From a virus (Duplodnaviria > Heunggongvirae > Uroviricota > Caudoviricetes), in IMG/VR virus record IMGVR_UViG_2703718792_000009: a stretch of 12,086 nucleotides of DNA. The stretch is one strand, 5' to 3'. Numbering within the stretch: position 1 is the first letter of the stretch; every line of letters begins with the position of its first letter. The position numbers and the translations under genes were made by a program. Below, in pieces: positions 9,884 to 12,086 of the stretch. Below the pieces are notes generated by a model. It searched no databases. It was not told the DNA's origin and saw only the letters and a list, made by a program, of their open reading frames with translations.

Positions 9884-10051
9884 ATGCACTTCCGAGTCAC
9901 AGGTGAATGGAATGGAGAGCCATTCAACAGAGTTATCGAAGCGGAGAACATCAACGACTGCTATAACCACTGGATGATATGGGCGCAGATAGCACATGCA
10001 GACGTAACCAATATTCGAATTGAAGAACTGAAAGAACACAAAAACGCCTGA
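9884..10051 (+). CDS. Hypothetical 55-aa protein
   Basis: GGAGA RBS 6 nt before ATG 9884; MHFRVTGEWNGEPFNRVIEAENINDCYNHWMIWAQIAHADVTNIRIEELKEHKNA; bracketed by hairpin/T-tract elements; short, so uncertain. Confidence 0.35.
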   Translation: MHFRVTGEWNGEPFNRVIEAENINDCYNHWMIWAQIAHADVTNIRIEELKEHKNA

Positions 10052-10066
10052 TGGCGGTTTTTTATT
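10045..10066 (+). terminator. Weak intrinsic terminator candidate overlapping the stop of the 55-aa ORF
   Basis: CGCC-tgat-GGCG stem (4 bp) followed by GTTTTTTATT. Confidence 0.4.
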
Positions 10067-10073
10067 GCCTGAT

Positions 10074-10089
10074 TTGCAGGTTCGATTCC
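10074..10089 (+). other. tRNA-derived fragment: T-stem 5' half plus T-loop (TTGCAGGTTCGATTCC), not part of a complete tRNA
   Basis: Contains the GGTTCGATTCC T-loop signature; no D-arm or anticodon arm upstream. Matches my recollection of the segment of tRNA-Arg (argW) immediately 5' of the fragment at 10379-10393. Confidence 0.5.
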
Positions 10090-10108
10090 CTATTCGGAGA
10101 TAGCACTC

Positions 10109-10309
10109 ATGCAACACGAACTACAACCTGATTCACTGGTTGATTTGAAATTCATCATGGCCGATACTGGCTTCGGTAAGACCTTCATCTATGACCGGAT
10201 TAAGTCCGGCGACCTGCCTAAAGCCAAAGTTATCCACGGGCGAGCAAGATGGTTATATCGTGATCATTGTGAATTCAAAAATAAGCTCTTAAGCCGCGCC
10301 AATGGGTAA
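10109..10309 (+). CDS. torI: AlpA/TorI-family excisionase (recombination directionality factor), 66 aa
   Basis: MQHELQPDSLVDLKFIMADTGFGKTFIYDRIKSGDLPKAKVIHGRARWLYRDHCEFKNKLLSRANG, a winged-helix Xis/AlpA-type fold signature; matches my recollection of E. coli KplE1 TorI; last prophage gene before the att core; CGGAGA RBS. Confidence 0.75.
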   Translation: MQHELQPDSLVDLKFIMADTGFGKTFIYDRIKSGDLPKAKVIHGRARWLYRDHCEFKNKLLSRANG

Positions 10310-10378
10310 AATAGCGGGTAAAATATTTCTCACATCTAAAAAACACCATTCCAATCAATCCCCTGCCTCGTCAAGTAG

Positions 10379-10393
10379 ATGTCTGCAGGGGAC
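10379..10393 (+). other. Right attachment-site core (attR): 15-nt copy of a tRNA 3' end (CTGCAGGGGACACCA), consistent with tRNA-Arg argW
   Basis: T-stem 3' half, acceptor 3' half, discriminator and CCA with no upstream tRNA body: the partial duplicate left by integration into a tRNA gene. The argW assignment is from memory. Confidence 0.6.
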
Positions 10394-10838
10394 ACCAGAT
10401 ACCCTTCAAACCAAATCTACCTTCACCCCGTAAAAGATGGGTTTGGCAGCACACTTGCCCTATATCTACTCATTTTTACTGCAACAGGTTGAAATCTCAG
10501 CACTGTCAGAAAGCGCTGATGACTAAACAGCCCTGGGCCGGGCGATGTAACCATCATACAGAATCCTGATAGCGAAATATGGCGTGACTCGATACTTCAC
10601 TCTGCAATGCATTCCTTGATGAATTCGCAGGCCCGTGATACACGGGACAGGTCGCTGAATGACGACAATGTCCTGGAAATCAGCGAACCGCGTATCCGGA
10701 GTACATTTGAGCGACTGTACCAGAACATGAATGAGGCGTTTGGATTAGGCGATTATTAGCAGGGCTAAGCATTTTTGTATTATTATTTTCCGGTTGAGGG
10801 ATATGGAGATATCGACAACAACCGGAAAAAGTTTACGT

Positions 10839-12086
10839 CTATATTGCTGAAGGTACAGGCGTTTCCATAACTATTTGCTCGCGTTTTTTACTCAGGAAGA
10901 AAATGCCAAATAGCAACATCAGGCAGACAATACCCGAAATTGCGAAGAAAACTGTCTGGTAGCCTGCGTGGTCAAAGAGTATCCCAGTCGGCGTTGAAAG
11001 CAGCACAATCCCAAGCGAACTGGCAATTTGAAAACCAATCAGAAAGATCGTCGACGACAGGCGCTTATCAAAGTTTGCCACGCTGTATTTGAAGACGGAT
11101 ATGACACAAAGTGGAACCTCAATGGCATGTAACAGCTTCACTAATGAAATAATCCAGGGGTTAACGAACAGCGCGCAGGAAAGGATACGCAACGCCATAA
11201 TCACAACACCGATAAGTAATGCATTTTTTGGCCCTACCCGATTCACAAAGAAAGGAATAATCGCCATGCACAGCGCTTCGAGTACCACCTGGAATGAGTT
11301 GAGATAACCATACAGGCGCGTTCCTACATCGTGTGATTCGAATAAACCTGCATAAAAGACAGGAAAGAGTTGTTGATCAAAAATGTTATAGAAAGACCAC
11401 GTCCCCACAATAAATATGACAAAAACCCAGAAGTTTCGATCCTTGAAAACTGCGATAAAATCCTCTTTTTTTACCCCTCCCGCATCCGCCGCTATGCACT
11501 GGTGATCCTTATCTTTAAAACGCATGTTGATCATCATAAATACAGCGCCAAATAGCGAGACCAACCAGAAGTTGATATGGGGACTGATACTAAAAAATAT
11601 ACCGGCAAAGAACGCGCCAATAGCATAGCCAAAAGATCCCCAGGCGCGCGCTGTTCCATATTCGAAATGAAAATTTCGCGCCATTTTTTCGGTGAAGCTG
11701 TCAAGCAAACCGCATCCCGCCAGATACCCCAGGCCAAAAAAGAGCGCCCCCAGAATTAGACCTACAGAAAAATTGCTTTGCAGTAACGGTTCATAAACGT
11801 AAATCATAAACGGTCCGGTCAAGACCAGAATGAAACTCATACACCAGATGAGCGGTTTCTTCAGACCGAGTTTATCCTGAACGATGCCGTAGAACATCAT
11901 AAATAGAATGCTGGTAAACTGGTTGACCGAATAAAGTGTACCTAATTCCGTCCCTGTTAATCCTAGATGTCCTTTCAGCCAAATAGCGTATAACGACCAC
12001 CACAGCGACCAGGAAATAAAAAAGAGAAATGAGTAACTGGATGCAAAACGATAGTACGCATTTCTGAATGGAATATTCAGTGCCAT
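10839..12086 (-). CDS. cscB: LacY-family oligosaccharide:H+ symporter, most likely sucrose permease CscB (415 aa, complete; start codon is the last 3 nt of the window)
   Basis: Aligns by eye along its length with LacY (DKLGLKKPLIWCMSFILVLTGPF...NFHFEYGTARAWGSFGYAIG... vs LacY [23 protein letters not shown]...NFEFGRARMFGCVGWALC...); N-terminus MALNIPFRNAYYRFASSYSFLFF matches my recollection of CscB. Confidence 0.8.
   Translation of the reverse strand: MALNIPFRNAYYRFASSYSFLFFISWSLWWSLYAIWLKGHLGLTGTELGTLYSVNQFTSILFMMFYGIVQDKLGLKKPLIWCMSFILVLTGPFMIYVYEPLLQSNFSVGLILGALFFGLGYLAGCGLLDSFTEKMARNFHFEYGTARAWGSFGYAIGAFFAGIFFSISPHINFWLVSLFGAVFMMINMRFKDKDHQCIAADAGGVKKEDFIAVFKDRNFWVFVIFIVGTWSFYNIFDQQLFPVFYAGLFESHDVGTRLYGYLNSFQVVLEALCMAIIPFFVNRVGPKNALLIGVVIMALRILSCALFVNPWIISLVKLLHAIEVPLCVISVFKYSVANFDKRLSSTIFLIGFQIASSLGIVLLSTPTGILFDHAGYQTVFFAISGIVCLMLLFGIFFLSKKREQIVMETPVPSAI

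Follow-up and report, generated by a model that had tools for sequence, protein, structure and literature searches.

A conserved argW T-arm-like box in the leader of the excisionase gene torI at the right end of a P22-like/lambdoid prophage

The analysed DNA, called the window here, is a stretch of 12,086 nt from the IMG/VR virus record IMGVR_UViG_2703718792_000009. It is the right end of a P22-like/lambdoid prophage at argW and carries a recombination module of the KplE1/HK620/Sf6 type. An early-left operon with N, cIII, kil, erf-like, ssb and abc genes, followed further on by ASCH and orf55 genes, runs rightward into torI, the final gene of this operon in the prophage, which encodes a recombination directionality factor (RDF, excisionase). 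Its product was matched over residues 1–66 of 66 to the solved TorI structure (PDB 1Z4H, E = 6.6e-43). The subject of this report is a short box in the torI leader that resembles the T-arm of the argW tRNA. In modules of this type attP lies between xis (torI) and int (PMC2951348, PMC8787464). The features of the region are, in order:

9884..10051, plus strand: orf55 homologue of lambda, 55 aa, the last early-left gene before torI (from the list of open reading frames, ORFs)
10045..10063, no strand assigned: intrinsic, bidirectional-looking terminator CGCC-TGAT-GGCG, with a T-run after the stem and an A-run on the opposite side
10064..10071, plus strand: ATTGCCTG box, where the homology to the lambda xis leader ends (alignment with lambda)
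10074..10089, plus strand: fragment 1, argW nt 46–61, 16/16 identity
10077..10090, plus strand: T-arm-like box CAGGTTCGATTCCC, family consensus CAG-GTTCGATT-Y-CC, found in 21/28 torI lineages
10096..10099, plus strand: Shine-Dalgarno (SD) sequence GGAG of torI, 5 nt past the box and complementary to ATTYCC of the box
10109..10309, plus strand: torI, RDF of 66 aa (PDB 1Z4H match and RefSeq torI annotation)
10304–10312 and 10316–10324, plus strand: two GGGTAAAAT repeats, the P-arm arm-type sites of the integrase IntS, with TAAA as in IntS sites
10372..10382, plus strand: degenerate T-loop remnant CAAGTAGATGT, adjoining the core on its 5' side, nnTTCGATGTn in relatives
10383..10397, plus strand: attR core, fragment 2, CTGCAGGGGACACCA, argW nt 61–75; prophage-free genomes align from 10383

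The sequence of argW, taken from an empty-site Escherichia coli genome, is GTCCTCTTAGTTAAATGGATATAACGAGCCCCTCCTAAGGGCTAATTGCAGGTTCGATTCCTGCAGGGGACACCA, and two pieces of it are present in the window, as a preliminary description of this DNA had claimed. Fragment 1, TTGCAGGTTCGATTCC, occurs once, at exactly the position given there (10074–10089), and reaches from the end of the variable loop through the 5' T-stem and the T-loop to the second nt of the 3' T-stem. Fragment 2, CTGCAGGGGACACCA, also occurs once and its sequence was given correctly, but it lies at 10383–10397, 4 nt further right than the 10379–10393 of that description. The alignments of 16/16 and 15/15 nt identify the tRNA as argW (tRNA-Arg CCU), in agreement with the original assignment, and the two fragments do share one base, C61 of argW. 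They are separated by 293 bp, and torI lies in the interval. No further argW match of at least 10 nt was found on either strand of the window, ARAGORN predicted no tRNA over it, and Rfam gave sub-threshold small RNA matches only. A chance match of fragment 1 was rejected, as chance would give 3.4e-4 matches of a 16-mer to argW in 12 kb and relatives have kept this match. That fragment 1 exceeds a generic T-loop match holds for the lineage of this window: the TTG that extends the match to 16 nt is specific to E. coli, and TTCCAGG, ACAGG, GTCAGG, ATAGG, or GCCGG is found elsewhere. The likeness of the box to the argW T-arm is 13/14 nt family-wide, the conserved C at position +10 of the box being a T in the tRNA.

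Prophage-free genomes align with the window from 10383 onward and have argW directly to the left, so that 10383–10397 is the attR core, as had been expected of fragment 2, and the DNA from 10398 onward is chromosomal. At this prophage/chromosome junction the core equals the argW 3' end (CTGCAGGGGACACCA[T]). The core published for KplE1, HK620, Sf6, and Kapi1 is CTGCAGGGGACACCAT (PMC2951348, PMC8787464). TAAA arm-type sites and the RDF gene lie immediately inside it, torI ending at 10309. The arm-type sites of IntS have been described as TAAA-containing GGGTAAAA repeats (PMC2951348), and the first GGGTAAAAT copy (10304–10312) falls inside the attP repeat annotated in HK620. The layout of the P arm is identical in 26 loci from at least 10 genera; the distance from the first base of the torI stop codon to the GGGGAC of the core is 81 nt in 17 of the 26, this offset having been counted only in the 17 loci with that exact core word.

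A degenerate T-loop remnant of the TTCGATGT type (CAAGTAGATGT here) adjoins the core in all lineages. It reads nnTTCGATGTnTGCAGGGG in relatives and CAAGTAGATGT-CTGCAGGGG in the window. As the remnant adjoins the 5' side of the core, attP has an unbroken tRNA-like block, and fragment 1, which overlaps that block in tRNA coordinates, is an extra copy. The remnant at 10372–10382 is the probable, predicted C (core-type) half-site of IntS. The core side of attP/attR is kept as TTCGATGTn-TGCAGGG-GACACC in the window (10372–10397) and in loci L007–L030, which suggests a C site that differs from the B site of the tRNA at three fixed positions (TCC to GTn). The inverted arrangement TGTC-TGCAGGG-GACA suggests a 7-bp overlap region, TGCAGGG. 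At three loci (L164, L166, and L167) the host argW ends with AGGGAACGCCA and has an unchanged T-arm (GCAGGTTCGATTCCTGC), and the P' arms of the prophage attL have five TorI boxes arranged in the same way.

Fragment 1 does not belong to the att site. Excision in vitro works with a 135-bp attR (PMC3509656), whose inner primer maps to 10286–10305 of the window, 197 bp downstream of fragment 1; mapped in this way, the published attR indicates that the box is not required for excisive recombination in vitro.

The torI loci of genomes and viral contigs were collected and reduced to 28 lineages at less than 95% nt identity of torI. The box was found in 21 of them, in the window as one copy with GTTCG at 10080–10084. 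Among the box-bearing lineages GTTCGATT and the C at +9 are conserved to 100%, although the pattern that anchored the alignment had itself fixed six of the eight bases of GTTCGATT; CAG and the C at +10 are conserved to 81–86%, and position +8 varies between C and T. The pairwise identity in the same lineages is 24–66% in the columns flanking the box, 56% at 4-fold sites of torI, and 61.5% at third codon positions. In the seven remaining lineages the box is replaced or cleanly deleted, not decayed, and the P arm is unchanged; in Dryocola (L017) a clean deletion has joined ATTGCCTG to the SD sequence, the junction reading ATTGCCTG-GAGG. Tandem copies are present in three lineages. Both copies are retained with a 16-nt period in the Erwinia-type clade (L132/L133/L135; L007 2476–2505), where L136 has a single copy, and two copies with a 13-nt period are present in L129, so the duplication arose with two periods in different clades. 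The sequence left of the box varies by lineage, from which it follows that the box travels with torI. Its spacing to the torI SD sequence is 3–6 nt in 20/21 lineages and 12 nt in Serratia.

This pattern of conservation indicates that the box is under purifying selection, and it is likely a selected cis element of the torI leader. Fragment 1 is best read as a separate, selected copy of the argW T-arm, the same sequence that serves as the left attB half beside the crossover. As far as checked, such an element in the torI leader may be previously undescribed. A full-text literature search for the box sequence returned unrelated tRNA uses only, and the papers on the KplE1 module, which map IntS, TorI, and IHF sites in attL and in the 135-bp attR, leave the box unmentioned (PMC2951348, PMC3509656, PMC8787464).

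The RNA of the leader offers a possible function. AUUYCC of the box can pair with GGAGAU, and GGUU with the AACC ahead of the ATG. In minimum free energy folds the SD sequence is sequestered in most lineages, and its pairing probability lies above that of at least 80% of shuffles in 12/19 lineages. With the proposed helix in register, pairing is seen in 84% of cells, against 31–63% when the partner is slid; with the 12-nt spacing in Serratia, TTCCTG stands opposite CAGGAG. A conserved RNA hairpin of the T-arm itself was rejected, because a real stem is formed only in the Edwardsiella/P. stewartii and Serratia types. Generic SD-sequestering hairpins likewise have a pyrimidine-rich element 3–6 nt upstream that is complementary to GGAG, and occlusion of the SD sequence is predicted in most lineages here; unlike generic anti-SD stems, the box has an invariant sequence, identity to the target tRNA, and retained tandem copies. 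The invariant unpaired bases and the kept tandem copies suggest that more than pairing is involved.

A tentative explanation, given somewhat less than an even chance, is that the box is a leader element that restrains TorI synthesis by occlusion of the ribosome-binding site (RBS), probably reinforced by protein recognition. It would open the torI expression unit as its first conserved element, between the upstream terminator and the torI RBS. The gene would be reached by read-through of that terminator, which fits the operon layout. In N-antiterminated transcripts AUUYCC and GGUU would pair with the SD region (GGAGAU...AACC) and occlude the RBS, and TorI synthesis would thereby be kept low. 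Proteins of the module itself probably also bind the invariant GTTCGATT: GTTCG is a TorI-box core, and the whole box equals the attB half-site that IntS must read. It is from comparison of sequences that we infer the regulatory role of the box, as well as every mechanism weighed here.

Several results weigh against this explanation. The box is missing from the seven lineages mentioned above, and in the window's own lineage the SD sequence is paired no more than in shuffles (0.73). No two-sided covariation was detected in the box–SD helix across lineages, and RNAalifold gave no consensus structure. Pairing alone leaves unexplained the invariance of the unpaired C3-G4 and of the wobble-capable bases. 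On the side of protein recognition, the E. coli box scores 1.6 bits with a position weight matrix (PWM), against 7.9–15.5 bits for 35 boxes of P' arms, and it is a single site in E. coli, while TorI binds cooperative arrays. No sigma-70-like promoter was found near the box on either strand.

The box could instead act on DNA only, as a TorI site serving RDF autoregulation or a block to re-integration, with the RNA pairing incidental. Regulatory roles of other RDFs, namely P2 Cox, 186 Apl, and P4 Vis, lend this some weight. The GTTCG at 10080–10084 is a perfect TorI-box core, mapped boxes having GTTCG, GATCG, or GTCCG cores (PMC2951348), and CAG often precedes the core in boxes I1–I5 of attL as it does here. 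At 9.2 bits, the CAGTTCGA form of L130/L131 falls among the scores of true boxes, a genuine box of a P' arm (I4 of L167) reads GTTCGATTT, tandem copies are retained, and TorI already represses intS at attL (PMC2951348). Mapped boxes have Y-A before the core, C/T after it, and stand in phased arrays with 10- or 20-bp starts, whereas the T-arm-like box has an invariant A and TTYCC, a low score in most lineages, and tandem periods of 13 or 16 nt. The low score of the E. coli box is due to A at -2 and A at +5, and the majority form, CAGGTTCGA, scores under every true box. TorI boxes contain nothing that corresponds to the conserved ATTYCC, and the site is solitary in E. coli. With no sigma-70-like promoter on either strand, a purely transcriptional operator would have no target to repress, and this alternative is considered unlikely. 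A second TorI-like word, ATTCGG, 12 nt downstream was rejected on its low score and because it is not general. An inverted TorI-like box, TAGTTCGT, at 10116–10123 on the minus strand in torI codons 3–5, 38 bp away from the box's GTTCG, was rejected likewise, since only the E. coli lineage has it. Rather improbable is a role as a core-type decoy for IntS, for which we know of no precedent, in which the box is a third, B-type half-site and IntS bound to the GGGTAAAA sites of the P arm loops out torI or extends the integrative P arm. It is the best account of the tRNA identity of the box, which equals the attB left half-site at 13/14 nt and stops at the point where TGCAGGG, the putative overlap, would start; where B and C sites differ, the box is B-like or has the same C/T alternative. 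IntS is heterobivalent and autoregulates via att sites (PMC2951348). No partner half-site or overlap sequence accompanies the box, however, its distance to the arm-type sites shifts by -2 to +7 nt among lineages, and the box-less 135-bp attR recombines in vitro (PMC3509656). The specific proposal that the box is a mimic of the attB left half-site, read by the core-binding/catalytic domains of the integrase with the arm-binding domain on the GGGTAAAA sites after torI, is highly doubtful. If true, occupancy by the integrase would loop out and silence the RDF gene, or TorI/IntS would sense the integrated versus the free state, and the level of a heterobivalent recombinase would be coupled to RDF expression in a new way. 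The idea of the preliminary description that arm-type sites evolved from tRNA sequence comes close in spirit, but the arm-type sites of IntS are the GGGTAAAA repeats at 10304–10312 and 10316–10324 and not the box.

The remaining alternatives treat fragment 1 as part of a promoter, as a relic, or as a crossover site. In the annotation of HK620 and Sf6 a cII-activated promoter of the pI type is placed here, with TTGC-N-TTGC over fragment 1 and cII driving int transcription. Apart from these GenBank annotations, its position matches that of the lambda pI cII site, TTGCGTGTAATTGC, just 5' of xis. The lambda xis leader has the same place in the genome, flanked by the orf55 terminator and the xis SD sequence, and homology to it continues to 10071 and includes the first TTGC, which lies in the ATTGCCTG box. 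In lambda TTGC-N6-TTGC is followed directly by the SD sequence, while in the window about 25 nt with the T-arm-like box are interposed, the cII repeats are unconserved, and attP lies between xis and int. The spacing is N5 instead of N6, the first TTGC is polymorphic (TTAC in about 17/80 E. coli viral-contig loci and also in K-12), and the second is absent in all other genera (TTCC, ACAG, GTCAG etc.) although the box downstream is kept. No acceptable -10 element was found (none with T at position 6), and the resulting transcript would include torI. This annotation is very improbable as an account of the box. The Arsenophonus torI homologue (L024, about 2455–2490) has no T-arm-like box, and its upstream TTGCGTGAGATTTGCGTGTAATTG closely resembles the lambda cII site TTGCGTGTAATTGC. 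It is about as hard to regard fragment 1 as a neutral relic of an ancestral attP with about 30 nt of tRNA identity, into which the torI module was inserted, or of a nested integration that left a fragment behind; this too is very unlikely. The fragments abut in argW and share C61, and the Serratia box reaches into the 3' T-stem with 17/18 nt. The relic would gain support from a relative with an attP that reads ...TTGCAGGTTCGATTCCTGCAGGGGACACCA-P'-int, with a functional P arm at the left and xis elsewhere. But the T-loop remnant beside the core means that the block was never split, and the box is much better conserved than neutral sites and has no half-decayed form. The joined form was not found: the junction of phage end, fragment 1, fragment 2, and flank is in 0/40 of the E. 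coli complete genomes listed (of 165 with full coverage), all 40 of which have a 294-bp torI segment between phage end and flank; the junction of the argW 5' part, fragment 1, and torI is in 0/5,426 genomes; and apart from the tRNA itself no record searched has the fragments joined. Insertion of torI into a longer tRNA-like attP block, as first proposed, is therefore unsupported, given in addition seven box-less lineages with the same P arm. The same applies to nested or secondary integration. Identity breaks off at C61, short of the tRNA 3' end, and the torI leader comes next; on the left are the lambda-like terminator and orf55, and no remains of another element stand beside fragment 1. The tRNA 3' fragments of tandem or successive integrations are likewise tRNA-identical segments in or beside a prophage, but they extend from the crossover as far as the tRNA 3' end and undergo neutral decay, whereas fragment 1 comprises the 5' T-stem and T-loop only, ends before the crossover region, and is apparently under selection. 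Almost certainly wrong is the view that fragment 1 is a true alternative attR crossover site. It rests on the record of phage CUS-3 (CP000711), which ends at the 16-mer of fragment 1, labelled "attR core" (L001 1725–1740 = CP000711 40192–40207), and the excised circle would then have the junction ...GATTCC-TGCAGGGGACACCA-P' and no torI. The Int of CUS-3, which has the same module, is 99% identical to that of HK620, however, and its attL is the standard argW-core-P' junction. In UTI89 the right end is 100% identical to CUS-3 and goes on with torI and then dsdC, torI lies between phage end and flank in all 40 listed genomes, and Kapi1, HK620, Sf6, and KplE1 use CTGCAGGGGACACCAT (PMC8787464, PMC2951348). 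As UTI89 and other strains with an identical right end continue into torI and the true attR, torI and about 310 bp of prophage sequence appear to be missing from the CUS-3 record, which was evidently cut at the 16-bp repeat. On the comparison of Int, attL, and UTI89, CUS-3 was also rejected as a natural joined form without torI.

The interpretation preferred here remains that of a leader element acting on TorI synthesis. The module of the window shares with KplE1 (CPS-53), HK620, Sf6, and Kapi1 the TorI protein, the 16-nt core, the GGGTAAAA sites of the P arm, and the location of torI and int at opposite prophage ends, and HK620, Sf6, and K-12 KplE1 carry the T-arm-like box at the same place. 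Production of TorI is the excision switch of this well-studied module; published work puts the main control on the RDF gene and describes no cis element in its leader. A box that copies the tRNA of the integration target would offer a concrete, mutable target for the question of how RDF synthesis is restrained, and would be a variation on known themes, the blocks of tRNA identity in att regions and the control of RDF genes through their leaders. Together with argW at the opposite end of the prophage it also makes up a direct repeat of 16 bp, and it can mislead automated calling of boundaries. Annotation has already been misled by it, since the CUS-3 record ends at the box and the "pI" of HK620 and Sf6 rests on it.

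Upstream of the leader, the orf55 region has about 96% nt identity to lambda 29098–29319, just 5' of lambda xis. The position of the terminator upstream of torI is kept in other torI lineages, with different stems; the stem AACGCC...GGCGG of the window is one G-C pair weaker than GCCGCC...GGCGG in HK620 and Sf6. In a consensus terminator scan of the window the terminator at 10045–10063 was not called. The Rfam matches anchored on it are both full-length and sub-threshold: STnc420 on the plus strand (10012–10067, 24.6 bits vs gathering score 70) and STnc130 on the minus strand (10032–10159, 29.5 bits vs gathering score 55). The STnc130-like RNA would run antisense to the box and the start of torI, and no promoter was found for this match.

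On the right side, the following was recognized from the ORFs and the comparison with prophage-free genomes:

10398..12086, no strand assigned: bacterial flank, csc variant of the argW island
10607–10759: DUF4942 fragment in the flank
10839–12086, minus strand: cscB in the flank

An ORF of 43 aa (10302–10433, plus strand), homologous to HK620 hkaB and Sf6 gene 17, covers both P arm and core. It crosses into chromosomal DNA, so its 3' end is swapped on integration, and it is probably not a real gene. Many IMG/VR prophage contigs (L034–L113) stop 3 nt past the torI stop codon, before attR, and callers of prophage boundaries seem to cut the KplE1/HK620/Sf6-type module short.

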